Assembly (NCBI GenBank): GCA_964247135.1
Contig: CAXTTL010000059.1
Location: 1 to 21,894 of the forward strand
Origin: an uncultured Deinococcales bacterium
Lineage (GTDB): Bacteria > Deinococcota > Deinococci > Deinococcales > JAAFIG01
Direction: 5' to 3'
DNA: 21,894 nucleotides
The translations under genes and the position numbers were made by a program. Of this stretch, positions 752-21,856 are shown piece after piece (the first letter of the stretch is position 1; every line of letters begins with the position of its first letter). Below the pieces are notes generated by a model. It was not told the origin of the DNA and made no database searches. It was given only the letters and a program-made list of their open reading frames with translations.

Positions 752-1759
752 TTATTTTTTGAGTTGTTTACGAAAATTTTTGGCAACGGTACTGCCGCGC
801 ACGATCAATTCTGTTTCAATCAAGGTTTCAGCCGTGCTCCGTGCCAGCAGCGACTCGAGTCCAACCCTGCCCAACAGTTCTTTATTCACCCGAACGGTGG
901 TCAGCGGCGGATGGGCGTGTGCGGCGGCATGAATGTCATCAAAACCAACGAAGGCAATGTCTTCGGGGATTCGCAATCCAGCCTCCAGACAGACTTGCAT
1001 TGCCCAAAGCGCCGATTGGTCATTGACGACAAACACCGCGTCTGGACGAGGCTCGAGTTTTAAGAGTTGGCGCATCGCCGCCTCCGTGCCTGCTGGGGTG
1101 AAGGCTGGCTCGGGGGTCATTTCCAGGGTTGGGTCGGCTGGCACGCCCGCATCGAAAAGTGCTTGTCTGAAACCATAAAGTCGCTGTTGAATCGAGTGGT
1201 GGTTGGGACCGCCCATAAAAGCAATTCGTTTATAACCACTTTGCAGCAAGTGCGCGACCGCCTTTTTGGCACCGTTGATGTTGTCCATGTTGACGCTGGC
1301 GATGCCTGGCGAGAAGTGATCGATCAGCACCAACGGCAGACCAATCGCGGCGATGCGTTCCATCAGTTTTGGCTCGAAGTAACCGGCGCACAACAAACCG
1401 TCCGCCTCGTGGCGACGCACGATTTCAACCGCCCTATCTCCTGGGCGCAACGATGTGTACGAGAGCACAATCTCCTCGTCGCGGCAGGCGTCCTCGACCC
1501 CGTGCAGAACGGGTGAGTAAAACGGGTTGATGGTCAAATCGGGCAACCGAGAGGTTAAAAAACTGACGCGTCTGAGCTTGTTGGGGCGTAAATTTGTGGT
1601 GTCGTAACCAAGCTCGAGGGCGGAGCGCAAGACTTGTTGGCGGGTTTGTTCGGTCAGACCAGCTTGGTTCTTGAGTGCCCTCGAGACTGTGCCAATCGAA
1701 ACACCAGCCCGCCTGGCGACATCGCGGATGGTGACTGAACTGCTTTCGGAGGCTCGCAT
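752..1759 (-). CDS. LacI-family transcriptional regulator
   Basis: N-terminal HTH VTIRDVARRAGVSIGTVSRAL and periplasmic-binding-like C-terminus (PDAVFVVND, IPEDIAFVGFDD, PPLTTV). Divergent from the mannosidase. Confidence 0.95.
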   Translation of the reverse strand: MRASESSSVTIRDVARRAGVSIGTVSRALKNQAGLTEQTRQQVLRSALELGYDTTNLRPNKLRRVSFLTSRLPDLTINPFYSPVLHGVEDACRDEEIVLSYTSLRPGDRAVEIVRRHEADGLLCAGYFEPKLMERIAAIGLPLVLIDHFSPGIASVNMDNINGAKKAVAHLLQSGYKRIAFMGGPNHHSIQQRLYGFRQALFDAGVPADPTLEMTPEPAFTPAGTEAAMRQLLKLEPRPDAVFVVNDQSALWAMQVCLEAGLRIPEDIAFVGFDDIHAAAHAHPPLTTVRVNKELLGRVGLESLLARSTAETLIETELIVRGSTVAKNFRKQLKK

Positions 1760-1910: not shown

Positions 1911-1946
1911 TTGAATACTCAGTTTACTAAATTCAGGAGTTGTCCA

Positions 1947-4418
1947 ATGACAGAACGTTCACTCGAGCAAGATTGGAAGTTGAAACGCCGCAACCACAAA
2001 GTCAGCCTGGAAAGTGATTTTGCCACCACTGAAAATTGGCTGCCGACCACCGCCCCCAGCACGGTCTATCAAACCTTGTTTGATGCGGGCGTGATTCCCG
2101 ATCCGTTTTACAACACCAACGAGTTGAACGTTCAGTGGGTCGGCGAGGCGGACTGGTTGTACAAGCTCGAGTTTGATGCCAGCAAAACCGAAAAAAACCC
2201 CTGGTTGTGCTTCGACGGGTTGGACACCTTTGCCACGGTCTGGCTGAACGGCTTGCAAATTTTAAAGACACAGAACATGTTTGTGCCAGAGCGGGTTGAG
2301 GTGACACTGCAAGAAAAAAATACCTTGCATATTTTGTTTGAAAGTGCCTGGTTCAAAGGACGCGAGCTTGAAGCCGCCAACGGCGGCAAACGCCCCCTTT
2401 GGAATGGCGACTCGAGCCGTTTGTACGTGCGCAAAGCCCAGTACCATTATTCTTGGGATTGGGGTCCAAAATTGGTCGATCTGGGTTTGTGGCGCCCTGT
2501 CAGACTCGAGACGTTCAGCGCCAGAATCAGTGAGTGGCATTGCAGACCCGAATTGAACGCAAGTCTTGATGCCGCAAAATTGTCCGTTTCGGTCAAGCTC
2601 GAGGGCGCAATACAGGGCGCAAAACTGGTGCTGTCGTTGCTCGACCCAAATGGCAGCGAGTTGTCCAAATCGGTGCTCGACGCGAACCATCAAGTCGAGC
2701 ATGGGTTCTTACTCGAGCAACCCGAACTCTGGTATCCGCACCTGTACGGCGATCAACCGCTGTACACCGTGATTCTCGAGTTGGTGCGCGGCGGGCAACA
2801 TCTGGATTTCAAAACCCAAAAAATTGGCTTGCGGCAAATCCGCGTGGTTCAGGAAGCGGTTGCGGACGAGGCAGGCTCGAGTTTTTATTTTGAGGTCAAC
2901 GGCATTGCCATGCTTATGGGCGGCGCCAATTGGATTCCTGACGATTTGATGCTGACCCGCGTGACCCGCCAACGTTATGCCCAGCGAATCGCTCAGACCA
3001 AAGCCGCCAACATGCAAATGCTGCGCGTCTGGGGCGGCGGGATTTACGAGGACGATGCCTTTTACGAACTCTGCGACGAGGCTGGCATTTTGGTCTGGCA
3101 AGATTTTATGTTCGGTTGCGGGATTTACCCAGGGCATCCAGAATTTATCCAAAACGTCAAACTCGAGGCGGTCGCCAACATCAAACGCTTGCGGCATCAT
3201 CCGTGCCTGGCAATCTGGACGGGCAACAACGAAGATTATCCTCTGGCGTTCGGGCAGGGTTTGTACAAAGCCGATTTGCCACCCGAAGAAAACCCAGAAA
3301 TGCCCGCCCGAGTCATTTACGAGCGTCTGCTGCCGGAATTGCTGCAAGAACTCGACCCTGAGCGCTATTACCAACCTGGCAGCCCGTTTTATGGCAAGTA
3401 CCCCGACGATCCGAGCATCGCCGACCGTCACACCTGGGACGTTTGGGGTGGTATGGCGCGTCCTTACCGCGATTACATCAAACTCGAGGGACGGTTTGTC
3501 AGCGAATTCGGCATGGCGAGCGCCGCGCACCTCGAGACGCTCGAGGCGGTTTTACCCCCAGAGGAACGCCATCCGCAGAGTCGTGGATTTGAGCACCACA
3601 TGAAAGCTGGCGAGGGGATGCGACGCCTGAATGCCTACATCACCGACACGCAAAAACTGCCGACAAATCTTGCCGAATTTGTTTACGCCACGCAACTGGT
3701 GCAAAGCGAGGCGATGGATTGCGCCTACCGAATTTGGCGACGGCGTTGGGGCGTGGCGGGCAAACGCGCCGTCGGTGGCGCTTTGGTCTGGCAGATCAAC
3801 GATTGCTGGGCGGTCAGCTCCTGGGCAATCATCGACTCGAGCGCCACGCCAAAGCCAGCCTATTACATGATCAAACGCGCCCTCGCGCCAGTCAGCATCA
3901 ACCTTTGGACCGATGGATCGGTCTGGGCGTTAAACACTAGCCTCGAGCTTATACACTGCACACTCGAGCTTCGAGCCTTGAACTTGTCTGGGAGTGAGCT
4001 GAACTTTGAAAGCCGCGAGGTCGTGATTCCTGCCAACAGCGTGCTCGAGTTGGGCGTGTTTGCACCACAGCATGAGGGCGCCGTGGTGATTGCCGCAAGG
4101 TTGCTGACGGGAAATACGGTCGTTGCCCGTCATAGCTTGTTTCCAGAGCCGTTCAAATATTTTGACTTTCAAGCCCCAGAAGTAGAACTTCATTGGCAGG
4201 ATAAAAACTTGCGAATCTCGAGTCGTAAACCGGTCAAAGGCGTGTTCATTCATGGCTTAAACTTATCTGACAACATGTTTGATCTGATTCCTGGCGACGT
4301 CCAAACCATTGCCCTCTTGAGCATCCCCAAAAGCCTACCCAAAAGCTTGAAAGTCCAGTGGCTCGGTGGTTCGGGCGTGTTAACTGTAAAGCGTGAAGAA
4401 CTTGTCACCCACGACTAA
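1947..4418 (+). CDS. Glycoside hydrolase family 2 beta-mannosidase
   Basis: Motifs FDGLDTFATVWLNG, RKAQYHYSWDWGP, GANWIP, RVWGGGIYE, WQDFMFGC, WTGNNE (acid/base Glu), RFVSEFG (nucleophile Glu) and WQINDCW. Start moved from 1911 to ATG 1947 because of AGGAG at 1935. No signal peptide. Confidence 0.92.
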   Translation: MTERSLEQDWKLKRRNHKVSLESDFATTENWLPTTAPSTVYQTLFDAGVIPDPFYNTNELNVQWVGEADWLYKLEFDASKTEKNPWLCFDGLDTFATVWLNGLQILKTQNMFVPERVEVTLQEKNTLHILFESAWFKGRELEAANGGKRPLWNGDSSRLYVRKAQYHYSWDWGPKLVDLGLWRPVRLETFSARISEWHCRPELNASLDAAKLSVSVKLEGAIQGAKLVLSLLDPNGSELSKSVLDANHQVEHGFLLEQPELWYPHLYGDQPLYTVILELVRGGQHLDFKTQKIGLRQIRVVQEAVADEAGSSFYFEVNGIAMLMGGANWIPDDLMLTRVTRQRYAQRIAQTKAANMQMLRVWGGGIYEDDAFYELCDEAGILVWQDFMFGCGIYPGHPEFIQNVKLEAVANIKRLRHHPCLAIWTGNNEDYPLAFGQGLYKADLPPEENPEMPARVIYERLLPELLQELDPERYYQPGSPFYGKYPDDPSIADRHTWDVWGGMARPYRDYIKLEGRFVSEFGMASAAHLETLEAVLPPEERHPQSRGFEHHMKAGEGMRRLNAYITDTQKLPTNLAEFVYATQLVQSEAMDCAYRIWRRRWGVAGKRAVGGALVWQINDCWAVSSWAIIDSSATPKPAYYMIKRALAPVSINLWTDGSVWALNTSLELIHCTLELRALNLSGSELNFESREVVIPANSVLELGVFAPQHEGAVVIAARLLTGNTVVARHSLFPEPFKYFDFQAPEVELHWQDKNLRISSRKPVKGVFIHGLNLSDNMFDLIPGDVQTIALLSIPKSLPKSLKVQWLGGSGVLTVKREELVTHD

Positions 4419-7400
4419 AACCCCACCCAACAAACCCCTCGCGCGGCGACTCGAGCCTGCGGCGGGTAAAAATTTGGGCGGGGCTTGGTTTGTGGCGCCG
4501 TTCTTTGCGTTGTTTTTGGGATTTGGCGCGTTTGGTTTGTTGTTTTCGTTGTTTGTTTCGTTTCATGTCTGGGACCCCGTGCAAGGCACCGGCGAATTCT
4601 TGTTCAGGGGTTTGCGCCCGTACTGGCTGGTGTTTACCGACCCACCGTATTGGGCGGCAATGCTGCGTACCTTGCAGGATGGTCTGCCTGGTGTGATCTT
4701 GCAGCATTTGGTGGCAATGCCAATTGCGTTCGCACTGTTTTTGGTGTTCAGGCGTGCCCTGGGTCAACTCGGCGTGACCTTTTTTCTGCCCTACATCGCC
4801 TCGCCCGTGGCACTCTCGGCGGCATTGGGTTTGTTGCTGCGCCTGGTCAGCTCGCCACTCGAGGATGTGTTTGGCTTGCTGCGCGACCTGCCAATACTCG
4901 GTTCGATCCTGCCATACCGTTTCTCGGGTTTTGATAACTTGGACGCTTTTGGTCTGGTCTGGAATGCCGTGGGTTGGAATGTTTTGTTGTACCTGATGGC
5001 GCTGAGCGCCATTCCCCGCAGTGTGCTCGAGGCGGCACAGCTCGATGGCGCAGGTTTTTGGATGCAACTGCGAAAAATCGCTTTTCCCGTGGCACGACCA
5101 ATGGTTTTTATGGCTTTCAGCATGAGTTTGGTCACGGGCTTGCAAGCCAACGCCTGGCGTGCCAGTTACAGCGATTTTGATACCATTCGCCTGCCTGGTT
5201 ATATTTACGGCACGGCGTTCAAGTACGCCAACTTCGGACTCTCGAGCACCATGACCTGGGTATTTTTTTTGGTCATGCTGGGCTTCATTGGCATTGCGTA
5301 CTGGTTGTTTGGGCGCAATTTTAGCGCCATCGAAACCCCCGCCAACCTCGAGTCAGACCATGCGCCCTTGCGTTTGCCCGCCGTCACGACGTTGGTGATT
5401 AAGGTGGCGGTGGCGTTCGGCGTGTTCTTCAGCGTTTACCCTTTGCTGCTACTTTTTTTTCAAGCCACGCAAACTGCCGGCGGCGATTCGACCCAGTTAA
5501 GCCTTGGCGATGCCGCCAGCTACAATTACAGCTTGTTGCTCGAGCGCGTTCCAGAATTCTGGCGCAACCTTTGGAACAGCATTTACGTCTCGAGCCTCGC
5601 CAGCATTTTTGCCGTGGTCAGCAGCGCCCTGGCAGGTTTTGCCTTTGCCGCGCTCGAGTTTAAATTCAAGCGACTTTTGTTTGGCGTGGTGCTCGGAATT
5701 ATCGTTTTCCCTGCCATGTCCAACGCCATTCCGCATTTACTCGAGATGCGAATTTTGGACTGGATTGACACGCCCCGCGCCCTGTGGTTGCCCGCCAGCG
5801 TCAGCGCCATCGGCGTTTTTCTGGTGCGCCAGTACAGCCTCAACGCCCTGCCCAAAACCATGCTCGAGGCGGCAAGAATTGATGGCGCGAACGATGTTGC
5901 GATTTTTTGGCGCATCGGTTTACCGCTGATGACGCCAGTCCTGACCACGGTTGGTTTGCTGACCTTCGTCAGTTCTTGGAATCACCTCGAGGCTGCGATT
6001 TTACTGATGCGTTCCGAAGCCACGCGCCTCTTGCCGCAAGCCCTGGCGTTCTTGGGTGGCGATGCCCGAGACGCGGCGGTGATGGGCGCTGCGATTGCCT
6101 TGATCCCACCGCTCATCGTGTATTTCATCGCCTCTGGACAACTGGGGGCAGGTTTTGGACTTGGCTCGAGTTCTCGGTGGACTGGGATTTTCAAAAACTG
6201 GCGGCGGGGTATTCAAACCCGCCAAACCAGCCGTCAACAACCTCAAGACTCGGGTTTTGTGCTCAGCGGTGCGGATGGCGTGCGGGCGGTGGCGTGTTTG
6301 ATGGTGGTTTTCAGCCATTTGGCGCAACGCCTCGAGATGCCCAAGCAGGCAAGCTGGATTCAGGAGATTCAACAATTTTTGATGACCGGCGCTTACGGCG
6401 TCAGCGCCTTTTTTGTGCTTTCGGGAATGCTGCTCTCGATTCCGTTCTGGCGTCGTTATCTGGACGGCTTGCCGCTGCCGTCGTTCAAAGATTATGCGCG
6501 TCGCCGTTTTCTGCGCATCGCCCCAGGCTTTTACGTCAGCCTGATCGTGACGTTTATCATCGCTCGGGCGCTCGAGCCAGGGGATTTCATGTGGTTGCGG
6601 CTTTTTAGTGGTTTGACGTTCACGACCGCATTTCATTACGTGACGTTTTTTCCGGTCGAACTGAACGGTCCACTTTGGAGCATCGGTTTTGAGGTGTTTT
6701 GTTACGCCTTGATGCCGACATTCATGATTGGTTTGTTTGTGCTCGCCAAAAAAATTCAGGCGAACAACAACCACAGCACCCGCACGGTCACTCGAGAAAC
6801 CACCCGCACCGTCTTCAGAGGCGAGACGCAAATTGTCACGCGCAGCGTCAGCAAAACGACCATTCGCAGCAAGAGCAAAAACCTGCTCGAGCAAGCCGTT
6901 CCAGGCTCGCCAAGTTTGGCATTTGCGTACTGGGTTGGCGTGCTGATTCTGGCAATTTTGGCGCACCAATGGATTTTGACCCATCTTGTCCCAGACAGCG
7001 TCGACCGCAGTTGGAACAACGGTCTGATCGGCGGCGCGAAATTCTGGATGCCCAATTACAACCCGGTCGGTTTGTTCGCCCAGTATTGCATCGGTGTTTT
7101 GACGGCTGGGGTGATCGCGTATTGGCAAAAACGATTGAAGAACCTCGAGCGACCCATTCAAATTCCAGCGCTCAATTGGGTTGCCGTTGGCGCATTTGCG
7201 GCGGCACTGGCGCTGGTTTGGAACATGCGTCACGTGGGCGAATTCAGTTTCAGTTTGGGTTCGCAGCCCTATGCCTTCCCATTTTTTGCCGTTCTGATCG
7301 GCACGGTGCTGGCGGCAACCCCGTTCAGCTCTTGGGCGAAAACCATCATTGACAACCGTTTCACGCGTTACACCGCCAAGATTTCGTTTGGACTCTACAT

Positions 7401-7620
7401 CTGGCATTACCCGACCCTCGAGCTGGTGAGGTTGTTGCACAACAGCGATTACCATTATTTTGGCATCTCGGGTTTTGGGTATTGGGCGGTGTTGACGGGT
7501 CTGGTGTTGAGTCTGGCGTACTGGGTGGCAAGTTTGTCTTACACGCACCTCGAGAGTCCATTCTTAAAAGAAATCCGTCGCGTCAAACCAAAACCTTCAG
7601 CCAAACTCGAGACAACGTGA
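4393..7620 (+). CDS. Fusion protein: two carbohydrate ABC permease domains (MalF-like + MalG-like) plus an acyltransferase-3 (OafA-like) domain
   Basis: Two EAA loops (SVLEAAQLDGA near 5020-5052; TMLEAARIDGA near 5857-5889) in hydrophobic domains, then AT3 motifs DGVRAVACLMVVFSH, GVSAFFVLSG, RRRFLRIAP, LWSIGFEVFCY and ISFGLYIWHYP. Single uninterrupted frame. The GTG start overlaps the mannosidase end and is uncertain. Confidence 0.85.
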   Translation: MKNLSPTTKTPPNKPLARRLEPAAGKNLGGAWFVAPFFALFLGFGAFGLLFSLFVSFHVWDPVQGTGEFLFRGLRPYWLVFTDPPYWAAMLRTLQDGLPGVILQHLVAMPIAFALFLVFRRALGQLGVTFFLPYIASPVALSAALGLLLRLVSSPLEDVFGLLRDLPILGSILPYRFSGFDNLDAFGLVWNAVGWNVLLYLMALSAIPRSVLEAAQLDGAGFWMQLRKIAFPVARPMVFMAFSMSLVTGLQANAWRASYSDFDTIRLPGYIYGTAFKYANFGLSSTMTWVFFLVMLGFIGIAYWLFGRNFSAIETPANLESDHAPLRLPAVTTLVIKVAVAFGVFFSVYPLLLLFFQATQTAGGDSTQLSLGDAASYNYSLLLERVPEFWRNLWNSIYVSSLASIFAVVSSALAGFAFAALEFKFKRLLFGVVLGIIVFPAMSNAIPHLLEMRILDWIDTPRALWLPASVSAIGVFLVRQYSLNALPKTMLEAARIDGANDVAIFWRIGLPLMTPVLTTVGLLTFVSSWNHLEAAILLMRSEATRLLPQALAFLGGDARDAAVMGAAIALIPPLIVYFIASGQLGAGFGLGSSSRWTGIFKNWRRGIQTRQTSRQQPQDSGFVLSGADGVRAVACLMVVFSHLAQRLEMPKQASWIQEIQQFLMTGAYGVSAFFVLSGMLLSIPFWRRYLDGLPLPSFKDYARRRFLRIAPGFYVSLIVTFIIARALEPGDFMWLRLFSGLTFTTAFHYVTFFPVELNGPLWSIGFEVFCYALMPTFMIGLFVLAKKIQANNNHSTRTVTRETTRTVFRGETQIVTRSVSKTTIRSKSKNLLEQAVPGSPSLAFAYWVGVLILAILAHQWILTHLVPDSVDRSWNNGLIGGAKFWMPNYNPVGLFAQYCIGVLTAGVIAYWQKRLKNLERPIQIPALNWVAVGAFAAALALVWNMRHVGEFSFSLGSQPYAFPFFAVLIGTVLAATPFSSWAKTIIDNRFTRYTAKISFGLYIWHYPTLELVRLLHNSDYHYFGISGFGYWAVLTGLVLSLAYWVASLSYTHLESPFLKEIRRVKPKPSAKLETT

Positions 7621-7622
7621 AG

Positions 7623-7961
7623 ATGTTCGAGTTGCGCGAGTGGACGATTGCGCCAGATGATTTCGATCAAGCGCCAGTGCATACGCACCTCAGTTCGGAC
7701 GAGGTGTTTTATGTGCTCGAGGGAGAACTCGAGTTTTTACTGGGTTTTGAACGCAAGACTTTTGGCGCTGGTTCAACCGTCTACATTCCACAAGGCATGG
7801 CACATACTTTTGCCAACACCAGCCGACACCAAGCTCGAGTCTTGGTCATCATGACCCCAGAGATTGCTGCTTTGATTGATGCTTTGCACCAGCCAGACTT
7901 GAGTGCTGTTGAACGCAATGCGGTTTGGGCGCGTTTCAATTCCGTTCTTGAAAAACCTTAA
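7623..7961 (+). CDS. Cupin domain protein
   Basis: HTH...DEVFYVLEGELEF and YIPQGMAHTFAN cupin motifs. Start is ATG 7623 or the in-frame GTG 7617 overlapping the upstream stop (GTGA), not 7482. Confidence 0.85.
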   Translation: MFELREWTIAPDDFDQAPVHTHLSSDEVFYVLEGELEFLLGFERKTFGAGSTVYIPQGMAHTFANTSRHQARVLVIMTPEIAALIDALHQPDLSAVERNAVWARFNSVLEKP

Positions 7962-7995
7962 ATGAAACTGGCTCGAACGTGCCGCTCGAGCCAGT
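7960..7995 (-). terminator. Hairpin between the convergent cupin and lipoprotein genes, likely an intrinsic terminator for the minus-strand operon
   Basis: Perfect 10-bp stem ACTGGCTCGA (7967-7976) / TCGAGCCAGT (7986-7995), followed on the minus strand by TTCATTT. Confidence 0.6.
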
Positions 7996-8011: not shown

Positions 8012-10096
8012 TTAACAAATTTGGTTGATGTGCAAGACCACAAAGTCTGTGCCATCGTTGTTTTGAGGGTCTTTGGCATGAAGTCGCAAACGGAGGAAAA
8101 AATCTGCTTCGTGACAACCAACACCGAAGTCAATCGAATCGGACGGTTTCCACTTCCCAGTTGCGGGTACCGTAATCACTTTCGTGGTTGTACCAGTACC
8201 AGTTGCCACATCATAAGGGTAAGTGATGTCAAAAGACAGCGTGACTGCGCCGCCTTCAGGGTCGGTGGCATTGCCCAGAATGTCGATCACTTCATCTGGT
8301 CCAACAAAAATATTGTTGGCAGGTTTGCTGATGTTCGCCACGGGCGGCAGGTTGGCGGGCGGGTTAATCACATTCACGCTGACAGTTGCAATCGCCGTTG
8401 CCCCTCGAGCATCCGTGCCTGTTAAGGTCAGGGTACGCGCCCCGTTGGAAGAGAAGGTCACTCGAGGGTCACAACCTGTGACGGGCAGGGCATCGCCTGC
8501 GACTGAGCTTGTCCAACTGAGGCTTGTGCATGGCAGAGCGCCGAGCAGATTATGTTGCGCGTCGGTTTCGTTGGCGTCAAAACTTGTACCCAAAACCTTG
8601 TAACTGACGCCCCTGAAAAATTCTTGGCTGGCGAGCGGCGAGATCATGGAGACGGTCGGTGCTGGGTTGATGACGTTGACGGTCACGGTGGCGCTCGAGG
8701 TTTTGCCCTTGCTGTCGGTGGCGGTCGCGGTGATGGTTCGAGGCGCCAGGCTGGTGAAGGTCGCGTTCACTTGGGGTTGAAAGCCCGAAGCGGTTCCCAG
8801 TGCGCCATCCACGCTCGAGCTGAAGCTCACAGCGCAACAGGCAGCACCATCTTCGGGGTCTGAAACTTCGACCCTGAAACCGTGCCCAACGTCGCTCGAG
8901 AGACTTTCATTGGGGTTTGGAGACAGGAATTTGATGGTTGGTGCGGCGTTGGTGGACTGGGCAATTTGCGCGGTCAGGTCAAACAGGGTTGCCGAGAAGT
9001 CTTTGGTGTAACCCAAAATGTCCACATGAAGTCCAATGTCGCCCTCGACCCCGCCGAAAAGTTTCCAGACTGGATCGCGCGGAATCACGGCGTCAAAACC
9101 AAGTTTGGGAACGATGCTGACAAATGGTCCAACCACGCCGTACAGCAGGAAATCGGCACGAACCGGTAATTTGACATTCACGCTGGCGTTGACCTTAGAA
9201 TCGCCTGCGGTGGCGTCAAAACTGTTGCTGATATCCGAAATATTGTGAAAGTCATCGGTGTATTGCACGCCCGCCACGGCGCTCAGGGTTTGCGATGCCT
9301 CGAAGGTGACATCGACGCCGATAGAACCATCGAGTTTGAGTTTAATGGTAAAGATGGGTGTAATCACCACTGGAATGGGTCCAATCGAAAAAGTGATTGG
9401 CGTGAAACGATGAATGAAAATTGGGATTTCTTTGCTGGCACTGAACGCCACTTTGGCAACGATTTTTAACGAGGCTTTTTCTTGCAGACCAACCTGAAAT
9501 TTAAAATCGATGTCGGGATCGGTGCACAAAAATCCGCAATGAAAACCGATGTGCGCATTGAAAACTGGGTCAAGGCTTAGAGTGCCCGAAGCTTTGATTT
9601 GGTCGTTGGTGGTTTGGTTGTTGCCGTCCTTGTCGTAAAGCACGCTGTCAATCGAGTACGACAGTCCAACGCCTCTGGCGGCTCGAGTTTGGTGAACGCC
9701 CGCCACCAGCGGCGTGACACTTTCAGAGTCGGCTTCGGTCAAATGTTTGGAGGCATCCAGCGTGCCCGTTTTGATGACATCGCCGAGTTTGGCTTGTTCG
9801 GTCTGCACCAGGGTTTTGCCATTCGCGGTTTGGACTTGCACAACTTTGCGCAGCAATCCATTGGGCGCATTTTTGCTGGGTGCAGAAACCATCACATCCC
9901 CTGTTTTGGCGCTGACATCGCCGGTGAAGACCAGTGTGCCGTCGGCTTTAAATTCCTCGAGGGCGCTGCGGGTGCTGGGGTCGAGGACTTTGGCTTGGTC
10001 GCGCACGACCGCATCGGGGGGCGGTGGCGTGACAGGTTGCGAGCAGCCGACGAGCACCAACATCGGGAAGAACAATTTCACAATAATGTTTCGCAT
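8012..10096 (-). CDS. Large lipoprotein with a beta-rich N-terminal region and about three C-terminal Ig/PKD-like repeats
   Basis: Lipobox LVLVG-C and RBS GAGG. Repeats NAAPTIKFLSP / NPAPTVSMISP / NLPPVANISKP, with DPEDG and T.T.TATDSKG...ATVTVNV patterns. Confidence 0.75.
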   Translation of the reverse strand: MRNIIVKLFFPMLVLVGCSQPVTPPPPDAVVRDQAKVLDPSTRSALEEFKADGTLVFTGDVSAKTGDVMVSAPSKNAPNGLLRKVVQVQTANGKTLVQTEQAKLGDVIKTGTLDASKHLTEADSESVTPLVAGVHQTRAARGVGLSYSIDSVLYDKDGNNQTTNDQIKASGTLSLDPVFNAHIGFHCGFLCTDPDIDFKFQVGLQEKASLKIVAKVAFSASKEIPIFIHRFTPITFSIGPIPVVITPIFTIKLKLDGSIGVDVTFEASQTLSAVAGVQYTDDFHNISDISNSFDATAGDSKVNASVNVKLPVRADFLLYGVVGPFVSIVPKLGFDAVIPRDPVWKLFGGVEGDIGLHVDILGYTKDFSATLFDLTAQIAQSTNAAPTIKFLSPNPNESLSSDVGHGFRVEVSDPEDGAACCAVSFSSSVDGALGTASGFQPQVNATFTSLAPRTITATATDSKGKTSSATVTVNVINPAPTVSMISPLASQEFFRGVSYKVLGTSFDANETDAQHNLLGALPCTSLSWTSSVAGDALPVTGCDPRVTFSSNGARTLTLTGTDARGATAIATVSVNVINPPANLPPVANISKPANNIFVGPDEVIDILGNATDPEGGAVTLSFDITYPYDVATGTGTTTKVITVPATGKWKPSDSIDFGVGCHEADFFLRLRLHAKDPQNNDGTDFVVLHINQIC

Positions 10097-10137: not shown

Positions 10138-11799
10138 TTAACGACCAATCACAATCTGATTTTCGGTACAGAATGAACCCGTTTTTCCAGCCGTCATGGC
10201 TTTACCACCAACGTCAAAACCTGTGCTTAAATTCCAGGCGACTGTTTTGCCGTAACCATATGGCGAACTTGGTGTGTAAGTCATGACCGTTAAATCGGTA
10301 TTCCAAGAGATTGAGCCACTAACAAATGCTGCGCCGTTGACTGTCAAGCTAAACGCCGTGCCAGTGTCGTTCCTCATCGGTTCGGAAAAAGTGATGTTGA
10401 TTGGTGAACTGACTCCAGCATTGCAAATAAAGGGTGTCACCGGACTCACCTTGATGATTCGGGGTGGCGCGTCTTTGGTGGCGAAACTGAACTGCGCTGC
10501 CGCAAGCATGGGGTTTCCGGCAAGGTCAACGACCCCAGTTCCTATTGTGATGCTGTAAGCGCTCAGTTGCTCGAGGAAGGTTTTGGAAACGCATTTGGCG
10601 GAGTTGAGTGTCCAAGTCCAGGTGCAAGCGATTGGCGGCGCACTGAGGAAGGCTGCCTCGGCGCTGGCATGATCGACGGCTTCGCTGAAATCGAAACGGA
10701 TCGTGGCAATATTGTCCAGACTCAGATTCTCGAGCACCCCTAACACGGTGGGCGCGGTGGTGTCTGGCGGAATTGGCACGGAGAACTCGAGGGTGTTGCG
10801 CCCAGTTAAGACGTTGCCCGCCAGGTCTTTGACGATCAACGTGAGGACGAACGTTCCGCCGCCAGAGAACAAATCGGCGCTTGGGGTGAAGGTCGCAACG
10901 GTGTTGCCCGCGCTGAAAACTGGCGTGCCGAGCTTGGTCAAATTCAGGCTTCCCGCTGGGCAGGTGCTGGCGTTTTTGGTGCAACCGTCTAGCGCAAAGA
11001 CGCCAGTGTCAATCGGTTCTGAAAACGTGAACTTTAGCGTCTGCACCAAGGTCAAATTGCTTGCCAAGTTCGCGGGGTCGCTCGAGAGTAATGTCGGCGG
11101 CGTGACATCTTTGGGCGTGACCGAAGCGACGACTGATCGCGGTGAGTGGTTGCCGCTTAAATCTTGGGCATCCAGGGCAAAAAAGTAGGTTTTGCCGTTG
11201 GTCAAACCCGTGACGGTGGTAGAGATGCCAGGTTTAGCCACAAACACCGAACTGACCACGTTGTCGGCGCTCTCACCCAGAAAGACGTTGTACCCCGCCA
11301 GGTCGGTTTCGGTGTTGGCGGTCCACTCGAGCAAGAATTGATTTTCGCCGGCTGTGGCTTTGAGGTTTGCCGGCACGTTGGGCGGCGTGGTGTCGGGCGC
11401 AACCACCGTTTGAAAACTGATGGTTTTGGTTCCCGTCAAGGCGTTGCCCGCCAAATCTTTGCCCTCAACACTTAACGTGTAACTCGAGCCGAGTTGCCAG
11501 TCGCCTGGCGGGTCAAACGCCACCGTGCTGGCATCGCCCCAAACGGGAGTTCCAAGCACTATCGGCAAGCTCGAGCTGACCTGCACCGAATTTTGCTGCA
11601 TCGCTTCGGAAAAGGTGATCGCCAAGACCGCCGACTTGGAAACGTGGCTCGAGCCGCTGGCGGGCGAACTCGAGAGCATGGTGGGCGCGGTGGTGTCTGG
11701 CGGCGGGGATTGCGGGCAGGCGTTGAGTCCCAAAAGCAAACCGAACGTGACCAGCAATCGTTGCAGGGTTGTGGATTTCAAAACTTTTATGACGTTCAT
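10138..11799 (-). CDS. Lipoprotein with four Big_5/SbsA-like Ig domains and one fibronectin-III domain
   Basis: Start reassigned to ATG 11799 (GGAGG RBS), lipobox LGLNA-C. Repeats of DTTAPT...TFSE...DLAGN, and the FN3 signature PANLKATAG..LEW...DLAGYNV...GLTNGKTYFFAL.A.D.SGN.S. Confidence 0.85.
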   Translation of the reverse strand: MNVIKVLKSTTLQRLLVTFGLLLGLNACPQSPPPDTTAPTMLSSSPASGSSHVSKSAVLAITFSEAMQQNSVQVSSSLPIVLGTPVWGDASTVAFDPPGDWQLGSSYTLSVEGKDLAGNALTGTKTISFQTVVAPDTTPPNVPANLKATAGENQFLLEWTANTETDLAGYNVFLGESADNVVSSVFVAKPGISTTVTGLTNGKTYFFALDAQDLSGNHSPRSVVASVTPKDVTPPTLLSSDPANLASNLTLVQTLKFTFSEPIDTGVFALDGCTKNASTCPAGSLNLTKLGTPVFSAGNTVATFTPSADLFSGGGTFVLTLIVKDLAGNVLTGRNTLEFSVPIPPDTTAPTVLGVLENLSLDNIATIRFDFSEAVDHASAEAAFLSAPPIACTWTWTLNSAKCVSKTFLEQLSAYSITIGTGVVDLAGNPMLAAAQFSFATKDAPPRIIKVSPVTPFICNAGVSSPINITFSEPMRNDTGTAFSLTVNGAAFVSGSISWNTDLTVMTYTPSSPYGYGKTVAWNLSTGFDVGGKAMTAGKTGSFCTENQIVIGR

Positions 11800-11993
11800 A
11801 TTCAAGACCTCCCAAATCCTGGACGCTCGAGTTTGCAGGCTCGGGCTGGGTTCAGTTTGGGAGATCAACGGTCACATGGCGGTAACAGGAACGAATTTTT
11901 ATTTGCTGGATTGAATTTTTTCGAGATTCAAAACGTGTTGCTCGATGGTTAAGGTTTGACGCCAAACAGACGCTCGTCAAATTTCCAGTCGAG

Positions 11994-17299: not shown

Positions 17300-18796
17300 A
17301 TGCGGGAAATTAGCGTCTCGAGCGGTGGACATGCCTGGCCCTTTTCCAAAGGGCTGGTGGTTGAATCGCTATTGAACGCCGAGATCGAACGCGAACCCGC
17401 GATTGTCATTGCCAGACGGGTCGAACAACGCCTGTTGGACGAAAATTTGCGGGTGGTTGATCCAAGCAAACTCAAAGAAATCGTCTCCGAGGAGGCTCGA
17501 GAATTGCTGGGCGGCGAGGCAGCCGACAAGCTCGAGGCGCAAACCCCAGCTTTCGAGGACGTGGTGGTGACGGACGGCGACTCGAGCATTCCGTTTAGTA
17601 AGGGCATTTTATCGAGGTCGCTCGAGTTGGCTGGCGTGCCGATCAAGGACGCGCACGAACTGGCAAAAGAACTCGAGCGGCAACTGCGTATTTCGGGCAT
17701 CACGATCATCGACCGCAGCGAACTCGAGAAATTGGCGGTCGAAGAGGTCGAACGTCAGTTGGGCAGACAAGCCCGTGACGCCTACCTCGAGCGTTGGCAA
17801 CGCGCCAGTTTGGTCAACGTGGTCGATGAGGACACGGGTGTCAACTTTCCGTTTTCCAAGGGCATTTTGGCGCAGTCACTCCTGGCGACGGGTTTAAGTC
17901 CAGCCTACGCGCACCGTCTGGCTCGAGAGATTGAACTGAAACTTTTTGAGCGCGGCGAACCGACCATTGACCGCACGGGTTTGCGTGAGATTGTCGAAAT
18001 GGCGATTCGGGTCGAGGTCGGCGAGGACATGGCGGGACGCTACACGCTGCTGCGTTCGATTCGTCGCCCAGAAAAACCAATTTTGATCGTGATTGGCGGC
18101 GTGACCGGCACGGGCAAAAGTTACCTCGCCGCCGAGGTCGCCTACCGTCTGGGCATCACCCGCATCGAAAGCACCGATTCGATCCGTCAGGTCATGCGAG
18201 CCATGATCGCCAAAGATTTGATTCCAACCCTTCACGCCAGCACCTTCGACGCCTGGACGGCGACGCTCGAGCCTCATGTCGCCGCGCAGTACAAATCCAA
18301 AGGTGGTCGCAGGGTCATGAAACCCACACCAGACCAGCTATTGGACGGTTTCCGCGATCAGGTCAAACAAGTCACGGTGGGCGTCCGCGCCATCATCGAG
18401 CGAGCCAGCAACGAACACTCGAGCATGTTGATCGAGGGCGTGCACATTGTGCCAGGGTTTTTGCCGACCGAAGCTTTTAAGGACGTGATCGTGGTGCCGG
18501 TGGTGATCGTGGTGAAAAGCGAAGCCGAGCACCGCAAACGCTTTTACCTGCGCGACCAGGAAACCAGCCAGCACCGCCCGATGGAGCATTATCTCGAGCA
18601 CTTTGAGGACATTCGCGCCTTGCAGGGTTACATCGAGCAAATGGCAAAAACCGTTGGTGTCGCCATCATTGACGGCGAAAGCATCGACGTCGCCGCCGAA
18701 GGTGTGATTGAGGTTGTGACCAAGAAAGTCCTCGCAGTCCGCGCCGAAACCGAAAAGGCTCGAGAGAAAATGGCTTTAGAAGCATCTCGAGCCTGA
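17300..18796 (+). CDS. 2-phosphoglycerate kinase-like protein with three ATP-cone domains
   Basis: Three PFSKG(L/I)...SL repeats, then P-loop GGVTGTGKS, ESTDSIRQVMR, LHASTF and IEGVHIVPG. TAGACT lies 7 nt before the ATG (leaderless signature). Confidence 0.85.
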   Translation: MREISVSSGGHAWPFSKGLVVESLLNAEIEREPAIVIARRVEQRLLDENLRVVDPSKLKEIVSEEARELLGGEAADKLEAQTPAFEDVVVTDGDSSIPFSKGILSRSLELAGVPIKDAHELAKELERQLRISGITIIDRSELEKLAVEEVERQLGRQARDAYLERWQRASLVNVVDEDTGVNFPFSKGILAQSLLATGLSPAYAHRLAREIELKLFERGEPTIDRTGLREIVEMAIRVEVGEDMAGRYTLLRSIRRPEKPILIVIGGVTGTGKSYLAAEVAYRLGITRIESTDSIRQVMRAMIAKDLIPTLHASTFDAWTATLEPHVAAQYKSKGGRRVMKPTPDQLLDGFRDQVKQVTVGVRAIIERASNEHSSMLIEGVHIVPGFLPTEAFKDVIVVPVVIVVKSEAEHRKRFYLRDQETSQHRPMEHYLEHFEDIRALQGYIEQMAKTVGVAIIDGESIDVAAEGVIEVVTKKVLAVRAETEKAREKMALEASRA

Positions 18797-20932: not shown

Positions 20933-21856
20933 ATGAGCATTGCTCGAGAATCCTTTACCACCAATACGCGCAAACTCAATTACGCCAGCTTCCCGATGCG
21001 GCTCTGGCAGAAAGCCAAAAAGTTTGGCATCTGGAATCCGAGCGATATTGATTTTAGCCAGGACATCAAGGATTGGGCGGCACTGAACGACCTCGAGCGC
21101 GAGTTGCTCCTCAACCTTGCCGCAATGTACCAGGCGGGCGAGGAAAGCGTGACGCTCGATTTGCTGCCCTTAATCATGGTGATTGCCAACCAGGGGCAAC
21201 TCGAGGAAGAAATGTTTTTGACCAGTTTCTTGTGGGAGGAAGCCAAGCACCTCGAGACGTTTGGACGTTTTATGACCGAGGTCGCGCAGTCGAGCGGTGA
21301 CCTCTCGAGGTTTCACACGCCCAGTTACCACACGATTTTTTACCAGGAATTGCACACTTCGCTCGAGCTTTTAAAAACCGATTCCAGTCCTGTCGCGCTG
21401 GCGAAGGCTTCGGTCACCTACAACATGATCGTTGAGGGTGTACTCGCCGAAACGGGTTATCACGCGTATCACAATATTCTCGAGCGCAACAACATCATGC
21501 CAGGGATGCGTTACGCCATGCAAAAATTCAAGCAAGACGAATCGCGCCACATCGCTTACGGCGTGTACCTGCTCTCGAGGTTGGTTGCCGAACACGGCGA
21601 CCCTGTTTGGGAGGCGATTGAAGCCCGCATGGGCGAATTGTTTGTGCCCGCCATCGGCGTGGTCAACGAAATGTTTGACATGACCGCCGCCAGGGGTGAG
21701 ATTCCTTTTTACCTCGAGCAAGACGAATTCGTGAATTTTGCGATTTCACAATTTCAAAAACGCATCGCCCGTGTCGAACGCGCCAGGAGTCTCAGTTTGG
21801 CAGAGGTGCTCGGCGAGGAAAGCCTGCAACTCGAGCGTGAAGAATTGGTGGCTTGA
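20933..21856 (+). CDS. R2-like ligand-binding oxidase (R2lox, Mn/Fe ferritin-like)
   Basis: WNPSDIDFSQD, GEESVTLDLLP, EEAKH, TYNMIVEGVLAETGY and DESRH. The Val (EESV) and Tyr (TYNM) of the R2lox cross-link appear conserved. RBS AGGAG. Confidence 0.9.
   Translation: MSIARESFTTNTRKLNYASFPMRLWQKAKKFGIWNPSDIDFSQDIKDWAALNDLERELLLNLAAMYQAGEESVTLDLLPLIMVIANQGQLEEEMFLTSFLWEEAKHLETFGRFMTEVAQSSGDLSRFHTPSYHTIFYQELHTSLELLKTDSSPVALAKASVTYNMIVEGVLAETGYHAYHNILERNNIMPGMRYAMQKFKQDESRHIAYGVYLLSRLVAEHGDPVWEAIEARMGELFVPAIGVVNEMFDMTAARGEIPFYLEQDEFVNFAISQFQKRIARVERARSLSLAEVLGEESLQLEREELVA

Follow-up and report, generated by a model that had tools for sequence, protein, structure and literature searches.

Introduction

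The membrane subunits of CUT1-type sugar importers, such as MalF/MalG of MalFGK2, SugA/SugB of LpqY-SugABC and UgpA/UgpE, share two BPD_transp_1 domains with EAA loops, and to our knowledge such domains are known from importers only. FbpB of Thermus thermophilus FbpBC (PDB 9j4r), an iron importer without a fused enzyme, is a natural case of two type-I importer membrane domains joined head to tail. The joining of a transporter to an acyltransferase in one polypeptide is exemplified by LplT-Aas, a lysophospholipid transporter and an acyltransferase that occur fused or as a pair (NCBIfam model NF006386 for the fused form), which allows the translocated substrate to be acylated at once, although this protein combines an MFS transporter with a PlsC-type acyltransferase, acts on lipids and has no sequence relation to the protein described here. 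In sugar catabolism, LacA and Maa are the sugar O-acetyltransferases of catabolic operons.

The transmembrane acyltransferases of the AT3 family (PF01757), including OafA/OafB, OatA and Oac, function in surface-glycan synthesis and share a ten-helix core with the motifs R/K-X10-H (TMH1), FFxxSG (TMH2) and RXXR (before TMH3), as defined in part of PMC7448272. According to a section of PMC12423673, AT3 belongs to one superfamily with NagX/HGSNAT (PF07786). NagX and HGSNAT are also transmembrane acetyltransferases of sugar catabolism, which, in the course of breaking down a sugar, acetylate it across the membrane with acetyl-CoA from the cytoplasm; they N-acetylate glucosamine rather than forming O-esters, and neither has a fused transporter. 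For NagX, whose role is a proposal drawn from fitness data, import and cytoplasmic deacetylation would follow (PMC9007349, in the portion available). ABC importers and AT3 acyltransferases have each been well studied separately, and no description of the two being joined was found in the AT3 reviews or the literature searched; the fusions named in the available parts of those reviews are confined to SGNH, racemase and NRF, and neither 'ABC' nor 'permease' occurs there. The permease-permease-AT3 fusion reported here is a conserved but unstudied design.

Architecture of the fusion protein

In the window (the whole 21,894-nt stretch of DNA analysed, from an uncultured Deinococcales bacterium), a single open frame on the plus strand (4393..7620; P0001) encodes 1075 aa from a GTG start codon, with TTG 4402 as the alternative. 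The product is a genuine single-chain membrane protein, in which a MalF/UgpA-like permease is followed by a MalG/UgpE-like one, then by a linker that evolves fast and finally by a complete AT3 domain. The initial annotation had proposed this composition, with domain coordinates that proved accurate to a few tens of bases, and it is borne out by the open frame, Pfam, NCBIfam and full-length relatives. As anticipated there, Pfam recognizes BPD_transp_1 (PF00528) in two stretches (the best being 414-580; score 47.1 bits, cut-off 26.4) and Acyl_transf_3 at residues 626-1045 (E 4.8e-25; score 88.7 bits, cut-off 31), the latter spanning profile positions 3-324 of 326, and at E <= 0.1 returned besides these only a sub-threshold 60KD_IMP match. 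NCBIfam distinguishes a UgpA/GlcT/MalF-type half (~46-248) from a UgpE/GlcU/MalG-type half (~342-581), with permease scores that all lie far under every equivalog cut-off. The AF2 model of the whole chain has a pLDDT of 81.9 and a pTM of 0.76.

In the first ~590 residues, the two membrane-spanning subunits of a sugar ABC importer of the CUT1 type are arranged head to tail. Permease domain 1 (4480..5355, plus strand; residues ~30-321) is MalF/UgpA/GlcT-like (NCBIfam UgpA 53-248) and has six TM helices in the AF2 model, while permease domain 2 (5365..6162, plus strand; residues ~325-590) is MalG/UgpE/GlcU-like (NCBIfam GlcU 342-579, UgpE 388-579). Each half retains its EAA loop, as had been noted from the sequence, and across 58 sequences of relatives these loops contain invariant positions: E213, A214, G219, P232 and P236 in loop 1 (5029..5100, plus strand; residues 213-236, EAAQLDGAG...P232...P236), which is the expected ATPase docking site, and E492, D497, G498, A499 and P515 in loop 2 (5866..5937, plus strand; residues 492-515, EAARIDGAN...). 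The fold resembles that of SugA/SugB/MalG chains (TM by target 0.7-0.83), and Foldseek matched domain 2 to SugB/MalG at 0.72-0.83 (8hps_B 0.83; MalG 0.72-0.74); unlike in these systems, both subunits reside in one chain, together with a 450-aa enzyme domain, and no binding-protein gene could be assigned specifically to them. FbpB of 9j4r was matched over 552 aligned columns (TM by target 0.69; 16% identity).

A polar cytoplasmic linker (6163..6261, plus strand; residues 591-623) separates the permease pair from the AT3 part. It is poorly conserved, with 65% identity to its counterpart in the closest relative (G137) against 91-96% for the flanking domains, and its pLDDT falls below 50 at residues 612-620. 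The last ~450 residues probably form a catalytically competent AT3 acyltransferase, which the model places against the flank of the permease pair. The AT3 domain (6262..7578, plus strand; residues 624-1062) contains ten modelled helices (627-644, 654-691, 698-727, 759-792, 840-864, 891-918, 926-944, 964-978, 998-1016 and 1028-1062), and both ends of this core would be cytoplasmic, judging from the cytoplasmic C-terminus of MalG-type permeases and the distribution of K and R. All three motifs are present, namely the acyl-CoA/catalytic motif R631-X10-H642 in TMH1 (6283..6318, plus strand), F673 F674 V L S677 G678 and R705..R708. Residues R631, S677, R704 and R705 are invariant in the 58 sequences, and H642, F673, F674, G678 and R708 occur in at least 90% of them. 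A variable K/R/T-rich insert (6769..6909, plus strand; residues ~793-839), modelled as a low-confidence beta-hairpin (pLDDT ~54), is probably cytoplasmic; it has 11 K+R in its loop, evolves with a dN/dS of 0.34-0.9 and is missing from P0069 and P0068.

Two neighbouring classes were considered and rejected. The OafA/OatA-type AT3-SGNH class does not fit a chain that ends 13 residues past helix 10, with neither an 11th helix nor a C-terminal SGNH domain (no SGNH/GDSL match in Pfam), and the NagX/HGSNAT family is excluded by the lack of a PF07786 match at E <= 0.1. In contrast to OafA/OafB, OatA and Oac, the partner of this AT3 domain is N-terminal and a transporter, and its context is catabolic.

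Docking of the AT3 domain on the permease pair was predicted with an ipSAE of 0.67, against 0.00 for the best of three controls. Of 157 solved complexes, 116 attained that mark, as did 2 of 215 mismatched pairs; these counts apply only approximately, since our own alignment was used. The contacts agreed by at least 97% across runs, with partner pLDDT of at least 79. They involve TM3 of permease 1 and TM1 of permease 2 on one side and TMH3 and the last helix of AT3 on the other, and are situated on the flank of the permease pair, away from the central cavity.

Conservation and distribution of the fusion

A search for full-length relatives carrying both PF01757 and PF00528, as suggested in the initial annotation, returned 66 matches of 823-1188 aa (41-91% identical), 58 of which align end to end with the fusion protein (42-92% identity). 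The same genome contains a paralogue of 1006 aa, encoded by the last gene of an SBP-permease-permease-GH10-GH43-fusion cluster. In a survey of the phylum, 31 of 364 genomes gave a match, three of them over the permease pair only, and within the window's own family the proportion was 15 of 18.

Comparison with the 92% identical orthologue of G137 yielded dN/dS values of 0.054 for permease 1, 0.126 for permease 2 and 0.099 for AT3; all three domains are therefore under purifying selection (0.05-0.13), and the description of the permease halves as divergent was misleading, as they are constrained as strongly as the AT3 part. The notion that the fusion is only apparent, owing to mis-assembly, loss of a stop codon or gene decay, draws on the fragmented, 84%-complete source assembly and on the second junction (6150-6260), which is supported by full-length homologues only, its linker being too diverged for cover by related-strain contigs in the runs compared. 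At the first junction (5320-5380), related-strain contigs bridge the region without gaps in 4 of 4 runs. Moreover, independent assemblies, among them complete genomes of cultured Deinococcus species, show the same frame uninterrupted, a second copy exists in the same genome, and every domain is under the selection described above. No stop codons interrupt the junctions, homologues share the architecture and selection on the permease part is not relaxed, the points on which the initial annotation had staked its claim. The probability of an artefact is negligible and this explanation is, for practical purposes, already refuted.

In other orders, members of the same AT3 subfamily are joined to transporter domains as perm-AT3, perm-AT3-perm, AT3-perm and AT3-MFS, and in a quick tree these arrangements fall in separate branches, suggesting from sequence that at least four separate transporter-AT3 fusion arrangements arose independently. 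The MFS partners of AT3 relatives, whether paired or fused (e.g. P0069), are of the efflux type (TIGR00900/Mef/EntS-like). The majority of stand-alone AT3 relatives in Bacillota lie next to unrelated or envelope-type genes, the latter, found beside several of them, comprising NAD-epimerase (three cases), Wzy_C, CE4 deacetylase, VanZ and SH3.

Genomic context

The fusion gene follows a GH2 gene (1948..4418, plus strand; Pfam Glyco_hydro_2_N2, Glyco_hydro_2 and Mannosidase_ig), whose ORF was listed from TTG 1911 and which more likely starts at ATG 1948, preceded by aggag; its N-terminus (MTERSLEQDW...) shows no signal-peptide-like stretch. The beta-mannosidase label given earlier to its product was upheld by PDB matches (5n6u, E 5.2e-134; BtMan2A, 1.8e-126; exo-glucosaminidase, only 1e-26). 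The two genes are likely co-transcribed, because 26 nt are shared by the end of the GH2 gene and the start of the fusion ORF, and four of five window-type relatives have this gene order. Upstream and divergent lies a gene for a LacI-family regulator (752..1759, minus strand; Pfam LacI and Peripla_BP_3/1), and the proposed association with LacI holds in 6/6 window-type loci, where such a gene adjoins; GH2 and fusion are paired in 5/6. A CE7 (AXE1) acetyl esterase gene lies between them in two window-type loci and an SGNH hydrolase gene beside the fusion in one, so that such neighbours occur in 3/6 window-type loci and in none of the second clade.

Within the window's family, the fusion gene is the last or first in LacI-linked operons for intracellular beta-glycosidases (GH2, GH10/GH43, GH81, GH1/GH3), and 7 of 14 second-clade loci lie in GH10/GH43, GH43/xylose, GH1/GH3 or GH81 clusters; altogether, a LacI-linked catabolic context was observed for 12/20 fused loci. 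Among Deinococcus species, only one of the six loci that we assign to family f2 is in a sugar cluster and three lie beside aroQ/aroB/aroC, and the paralogue of the closest relative adjoins FabH and P450 genes.

The earlier remark that neither a binding-protein nor an ATPase gene is adjacent is correct for the window, which begins at the contig end (C59:1), but the missing binding protein is probably an effect of that edge: relatives have a LacI-(BioY)-SBP-permease set in divergent orientation, with SBP and permease genes immediately past BioY in G137, so that the fusion would supplement a conventional importer rather than serve as the sole one. The beta-glycosidase loci usually hold a binding protein and a pair of ordinary permeases already. 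In mannoside loci, the fused domains have no close relationship to the conventional permeases encoded nearby (no match for permease 1; 30-35%, partial, for permease 2), which makes sharing of the neighbouring binding protein doubtful. The 84%-complete genome yielded only two MalK-type ATPase genes (C48 and C226, both OB_MalK-bearing), whereas its permease pairs number in the dozens.

Possible function

The reading that we prefer, tentatively, is transport-coupled O-acetylation of oligosaccharides, taken together with the single-chain architecture and the flank packing of AT3. The fusion would rely on a shared ATPase of the MalK/MsmK type, would assist the locus's conventional binding-protein transporter and would couple the passage of oligosaccharides (here beta-manno-oligosaccharides) to acyl transfer. 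AT3 would use acetyl-CoA in the cytoplasm as its acetyl donor and O-acetylate the oligosaccharide at the outer face, near the permease entrance, after which the attached permease pair would import the acetylated product, and its breakdown would be completed by an esterase in the cytoplasm (CE7 or SGNH where present) together with an exo-glycosidase. By analogy, this acetylate-outside, import, deacetylate-inside scheme is the one proposed for NagX. Physical coupling of AT3 to the permeases, implied in the initial annotation, is supported by the predicted docking, with its controls, and by the recurrent fusions.

Several observations fit this scheme less well. O-acetylation of a sugar followed by its deacetylation costs acetyl-CoA, and esterase neighbours are confined to half of the window-type loci. 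The family f2 loci of Deinococcus lie mostly outside sugar clusters, as does the FabH/P450-linked paralogue, and most stand-alone Bacillota relatives have unrelated or envelope-type neighbours. The efflux-type MFS partners fit export better than import, and the predicted interface faces the flank rather than the central cavity.

The efflux-type partners, the accessory position beside a full importer and a layout reminiscent of lacI-lacZ-lacY-lacA (regulator, GH2 and transport domains, with the acetyltransferase encoded last, as may be compared for LacA and Maa) would also suit an enzyme that acetylates excess or non-metabolizable glycosides so that they are released and not retaken, the permeases serving only to present or recognize the sugar. 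This is unlikely, since BPD_transp_1 is known only from importers and the invariance of the EAA loops points to import driven by ATP; moreover, LacA and Maa are soluble hexapeptide-repeat enzymes of an unrelated fold, to which the fusion protein has no Pfam match. Cytoplasmic detoxification is likewise not the expected geometry for AT3 proteins, whose acceptors, as far as the available text of PMC9558356 goes, are extracytoplasmic. The same part of that source describes the characterized AT3 proteins as modifying surface glycans, and this, the envelope-type genes beside several stand-alone relatives and the Deinococcus loci outside sugar clusters point towards an ordinary second importer whose AT3 acts on another extracytoplasmic acceptor, such as an envelope or S-layer glycan protected while glycanases are induced, with no chemical coupling to the transported sugar. 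We consider this reading improbable: if there were no functional coupling, it would be difficult to account for at least four separate transporter fusions and a confident intramolecular interface, and the LacI-linked catabolic context speaks against such a reading too.

AT3 might instead run in reverse, the acyl-group recovery raised in the initial annotation, transferring acetyl groups from O-acetylated manno- or xylo-oligosaccharides outside to cytoplasmic CoA, with ATP-driven import pulling the reaction. Transfer from ester to thioester is thermodynamically uphill, and we know of no AT3 that runs this way. Natural mannan and xylan carry acetyl groups and decorated oligosaccharides are known to be deacetylated within cells after their import (PMC11127375; PMC8262883), both copies in this genome lie in mannoside and xylan operons, and a fused importer would remove the product. 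Nevertheless, GH81 (beta-1,3-glucan) and GH1/GH3 loci, whose substrates are not typically acetylated, also carry the fusion, and where the operon has a CE7 esterase the two activities would overlap in part, which leaves this direction very improbable.

Returning to transport-coupled O-acetylation, the fusion arrangements, the confident predicted interface and the strong selection on every part together suggest that this AT3 subfamily works as a sugar-transporter subunit in plant-polymer-degrading bacteria. Should the transported oligosaccharide be the substrate of acylation, this would represent a new step in hemicellulose catabolism and provide a tractable bacterial model for transmembrane acyltransferases that meet soluble acceptors. 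A broader and doubtful possibility is a previously unrecognized mode of uptake, in which the importer's own acyltransferase acetylates its substrate, or deacetylates it with capture of acetyl-CoA, as an obligatory step of translocation. Such group translocation by acylation would have evolved repeatedly, as perm-perm-AT3, perm-AT3-perm, AT3-perm and AT3-MFS, in Deinococcota and probably Bacillota. The presence of the fusion gene in cultured Deinococcus species makes the idea directly testable.

Downstream end of the operon

Directly after the fusion stop, a small cupin of ~112 aa is encoded from ATG 7623 (7623..7961, plus strand; Pfam Cupin_2), with weak NCBIfam cupin matches only. It had been counted as a member of the system and is instead a strain-specific addition, being absent from G137 (an indel of ~360 nt) and giving no tblastn match in any of 21 related loci. 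Between the cupin gene and a convergent gene of 694 aa, a hairpin with a 13-bp stem (7967..7995, no strand assigned), called by pattern match in a search whose total number of sites was not above that in shuffled sequences, likely marks the end of the operon.

Domain architecture of the fusion

The fusion is encoded by a single open frame at 4393..7620 on the forward strand (1075 aa in the ORF listing of the window), and the domain map proposed in the initial annotation proved correct in Pfam and NCBIfam searches. Pfam recognizes BPD_transp_1 in two stretches and Acyl_transf_3 at residues 626–1045 (E 4.8e-25; score 88.7 bits, cut-off 31), and NCBIfam places a UgpA/GlcT/MalF-like permease half at residues ~46–248 and a GlcU/UgpE/MalG-like half at ~342–581. 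All NCBIfam permease scores lie far under the equivalog cut-offs, so that no known transporter is an ortholog of the fusion. EAA loops are the docking sites of the ATPase, and their retention in both halves is borne out by an alignment of 58 sequences, in which E213, A214 and G219 of loop 1 and E492, D497, G498 and A499 of loop 2 are invariant.

In the AT3 protein OafA, the available part of the source describes an R/K-X10-H motif in helix 1, an FFXISG-type motif and an RXXR motif as essential (PMC7448272). The same alignment places their counterparts at R631-X10-H642, F673 F674 V L S677 G678 and R705..R708, with R631, S677, R704 and R705 invariant and H642, F673, F674, G678 and R708 present in at least 90 % of the 58 sequences. 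The AT3 domain also holds a fast-evolving, T/R/K/S-rich low-complexity insert (6769–6909, residues ~793–839), modelled as a long beta-hairpin of low confidence and missing from AT3-MFS and permease-AT3 relatives.

Distribution and authenticity

A word-indexed search yielded 66 proteins, 823–1188 aa in length, that carry both PF01757 and PF00528 and are 41–91 % identical to the fusion, named sources being a Meiothermus sp. and several Deinococcus; 58 of them align with it end to end. A further full-length gene of this kind is present in the genome of the window (contig C61:12833–15760, reverse strand; locus L009:7807–10827; 1006 aa, 46 % identity), where it is the final gene of an SBP-permease-permease-GH10-GH43 xylan operon (SBP, substrate-binding protein). 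Across the phylum, 31 of 364 genomes match at E ≤ 1e-100, including three with the permease pair only, as two genes parted by TGA; the window's family accounts for matches in 15/18 genomes and the other families for 13/125, 2/68, 0/128, 0/23 and 0/1. Matches spanning all three domains were confined, in a scan of species-representative genomes, to Deinococcales MAGs, Meiothermus MAGs, Deinococcus yunweiensis, D. rufus and Deinococcus sp. The two named Deinococcus species are cultured and carry a copy of the second clade described below.

Comparison with the 92 %-identical ortholog in the related genome G137 (Nei–Gojobori) gave dN/dS values of 0.054 (permease 1), 0.126 (permease 2) and 0.099 (AT3); the linker (0.15; 65 % identity) and the AT3 insert (0.34) are the faster-evolving parts. 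Contigs of related strains from four public runs (no run contains the strain of the window; word share at most 0.12) bridge junction 1 (5320–5380) gap-free; at junction 2 the bin 6184–6224, in the diverged linker, is without cover, and the loose ends there show divergence only and give no evidence either way. The initial annotation had raised the prospect of an assembly error, a strain-specific read-through, or an architecture without homologs and with permeases under relaxed selection. Relatives share the architecture, dN/dS stays low over all three domains and the first junction is bridged: the fusion is not an artefact, and the chance that it is one is vanishingly small.

Genomic context

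The context set covered 20 kb around 18 further fused and two split loci, together with the C61 paralog. The fused loci fall into a window-type clade (six, the window included) and a second clade (14). LacI adjoins in all six window-type loci, and in three of them (the window, G137 and G143) the fusion gene comes immediately after GH2. In two others (G133 and G130) a CE7 (AXE1) acetyl-xylan-esterase gene stands between GH2 and the fusion (L042:11513–12487 and L043:11532–12506), and in G143 an SGNH/GDSL hydrolase gene is found beside it (L040:7655–8278). A divergent LacI-SBP-permease(-permease) set comes next in four of the five window-type relatives.

The initial annotation found no SBP gene adjacent to the fusion. 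This absence is a contig-edge effect, because the window starts inside BioY at the contig end and G137, with the order LacI, BioY, SBP, permease, has its SBP past BioY. With the G137 SBP as query, the window's own genome yielded only a 40 % paralog on contig C78; the actual ortholog is probably located past the end of the contig.

In the second clade, seven of the 14 loci lie in sugar clusters, six do not and one is mostly masked. The sugar clusters comprise SBP-perm-perm-GH10-GH43-fusion (own genome, G141), LacI-SBP-perm-perm-...-GH43-fusion (G192), GH43-xylose isomerase-like-FGGY kinase-fusion (G128), GH1-GH3-fusion (G032) and fusion-LacI-SBP-perm-perm-GH81 (G133, G130). Among the non-sugar loci, three assigned to Deinococcus (family f2) adjoin aroQ/aroB/aroC, the G137 paralog adjoins FabH and P450 genes, and the remaining two are uninformative. 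The split, AT3-less relatives occupy an ordinary LacI-SBP-perm-perm-GH39-like/GH3 locus. The permease domains of the fusion have their nearest relatives in these split permeases and in xylo-/gluco-oligosaccharide-type permeases (36–44 %), and bear no close resemblance to the conventional ones that adjoin them in mannoside loci. Such transporters habitually share an ATPase, and the gene content fits this habit: in the genome, which is 84 % complete, only two genes for MalK-type ATPases were found (one, on contig C48, an orphan), compared with dozens of permease pairs.

Relatives and repeated fusion of the AT3 domain

An exhaustive search of representative proteins gave 130 clusters at E ≤ 1e-30. 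Pfam on selected matches and BLAST place the same AT3 subfamily in further arrangements, namely one permease-AT3 (P0068, P0077, P0081, P0088), permease-AT3-permease (P0072, 1008 aa), AT3-permease (P0080), AT3-MFS (P0069) and AT3-DUF2141 (P0082); permease-permease without AT3 (P0078, P0141) occurs as well. The ESM Atlas added a lead, an AT3+BPD_transp_1 cluster of 921 aa with 138 members, most commonly from Bacillota, at scores of 0.86–0.87 (under the 0.9 bar). In a quick, midpoint-rooted maximum-likelihood tree of 55 AT3 domains, supported by SH-aLRT alone and including some overly wide domain cuts, the permease-permease-AT3 proteins all fall to one side of a branch with support 76. The permease-AT3 and permease-AT3-permease group belongs to another clade (99), AT3-permease clusters with stand-alone proteins (89) and AT3-MFS with other stand-alone proteins (98). 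Subject to these caveats of the tree, transporter fusion arose at least about four times, and such repeated independent fusion is the strongest argument that AT3 and transporter work together.

Stand-alone AT3 proteins of 36–45 % identity occur in Paenibacillus (many species), Cohnella, Halalkalibacter, Alkalihalobacillus, Ruminiclostridium hungatei, Clostridium and a Trueperaceae MAG. Over 110 flanks of 1 kb around 55 such genes, most neighbours are unrelated. Those related to carbohydrates are GH43 in four loci and, once each, GH125, CBM56, a CE4 deacetylase and GH16 with two permeases; three further loci have an esterase or alpha/beta-hydrolase gene. An MFS gene follows in five loci and is Mef/EntS-like, that is, of efflux type, in the four examined. 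Some genes have envelope-type neighbours (epimerase in three cases, Wzy_C, VanZ, SH3).

Public databases list the fusion sequences under automatically assigned names ('acyltransferase family protein', or the double name used by JGI). A literature search, which extended to neither subscription journals nor TCDB, found no paper on AT3 joined to ABC sugar permeases, in agreement with the initial annotation, which knew of no described fusion of this kind. Neither 'ABC' nor 'permease' occurs (0 occurrences) in a review of AT3 proteins (PMC9558356) or in the paper on TmAT (PMC12423673), the available parts of which name only SGNH, racemase and NRF as fusions. There is a real chance that the fusion represents a new chemistry coupled to transport.

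Predicted structure and docking

The AlphaFold2 model built from the 58-sequence alignment (mean pLDDT 81.9, pTM 0.76) contains six plus six helices in the permeases and ten long helices in AT3, with low confidence confined to the N-terminus, the linker (612–620), the AT3 insert and the C-terminus. In Foldseek, the permease part matches SugA/SugB of LpqY-SugABC, MalG, an alginate importer and, over 552 columns, FbpB of Thermus thermophilus (9j4r), an importer subunit that, like the fused pair, naturally unites two domains in a single chain. Judging from MalG-type topology and K/R counts, each module probably has an even number of helices and both ends in the cytoplasm, which would make the modules joinable in any order.

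When residues 30–590 and 624–1060 were folded as separate chains, the permease pair and AT3 docked with an ipSAE of 0.67 (0.67, 0.65 and 0.70 in three runs), against 0.00 for the best of three controls, the alignment rows being halves of the same proteins, which aids the model. Of 157 solved complexes, 116 attain this ipSAE mark, as do two of 215 mismatched pairs; these counts apply only roughly here, since the alignment was self-supplied. At least 97 % of contacts agreed between runs, and the pLDDT of the partner was at least 79. The interface, taken solely from the two-chain prediction, would involve helix 3 of permease 1 (147–158), the start of helix 1 and the following loop of permease 2 (330–338, 367–370), and, in AT3, helix 3 just past RXXR (711–734) and the last helix (1015–1018, 1052–1057). 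The predicted pairing is topologically consistent, cytoplasmic ends meeting cytoplasmic ends, and supports, rather than demonstrates, docking of AT3 on the permease pair. We know of no comparable complex that has been solved, and there was none among the Foldseek matches to the model.

Possible mechanisms

The analysis establishes the architecture and its conservation, the intact motifs, the predicted docking and the place of the gene in operons. We infer that the fusion, together with a shared ATPase, serves as an accessory to the importer of the locus and links the passage of oligosaccharides with acyl transfer. In the version that is tentatively preferred, whose chance is judged to be somewhat short of even, the oligosaccharide would be O-acetylated at the outer face with acetyl from acetyl-CoA, imported via the attached permease pair, and de-acetylated in the cytoplasm before hydrolysis. 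This version follows a logic that is established for HGSNAT and, according to the available part of the source (PMC9007349), has been proposed for NagX. Acetylation followed by import and de-acetylation would explain the CE7 or SGNH genes in three of the six window-type loci. On the other hand, the other loci lack esterases, the surroundings of the Deinococcus genes have no link with sugars, the MFS partners are of efflux type and AT3 is predicted to contact the permease pair along its flank instead of at the central cavity; the benefit of acetylating and then de-acetylating is also unclear.

A release valve resembling LacA is considered unlikely, as is, to a similar degree, an ordinary importer that merely carries an envelope acetylase. 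The latter, as a reading in which envelope acetylation would be the basic job of the AT3 subfamily, is kept alive by the neighbours of the stand-alone genes; the repeated joining to transporters argues for cooperation between the two parts. Salvage of acetyl groups, with AT3 working in reverse, seems more doubtful still.

The operon and its surroundings

The neighbours are as first described. LacI (752–1759, reverse strand) adjoins the GH2 frame (1911–4418, forward strand). Translation of GH2 probably starts at ATG 1948, which an aggag motif precedes, and the N-terminus of the enzyme is not signal-peptide-like. GH2 is of beta-mannosidase type (PDB 5n6u, E 5e-134; BtMan2A, 2e-126). The candidate reading of GH2 as a CsxA-type exo-beta-glucosaminidase, with AT3 as a GlcN N-acetylase, was rejected, as the CsxA match reached only 1e-26 versus 1e-134 for beta-mannosidases. 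The small cupin gene (7623–7961, forward strand; start ATG 7623 directly past the fusion stop), which weakly resembles ureidoglycine-aminohydrolase-type cupins, had been counted as a member of the system; it is missing from G137 through an indel of ~360 nt and has no tblastn match in any of 21 related loci, and is a strain-specific passenger.

A search for a LacI operator (seed 6) found no inverted repeat in 1740–1930. The LacI–GH2 intergenic region contains the arms GTTGCT...AGCAAC (6 nt, 8-nt spacer) at 1781–1800 and two copies of a GCTTGCCAG repeat (about 1815 and 1849), each a possible operator element. In a promoter and terminator scan, the number of sites was not above that in shuffles.

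Two genes on the reverse strand run convergent to the operon. The product of the first (8012–10096), 694 aa long, matches no Pfam family with confidence; that of the second (10138–11868), 576 aa long, combines four Big_5 Ig-like repeats with fn3. The pair is syntenic in G137 (L039:4838–8691). Further along, on the forward strand, a gene at 17300–18796 encodes a 498-aa protein with an ATP-cone and an AAA/zeta-toxin-like P-loop region, and a few genes downstream of it is a ribonucleotide-reductase small-chain-like gene (20933–21856, forward strand).
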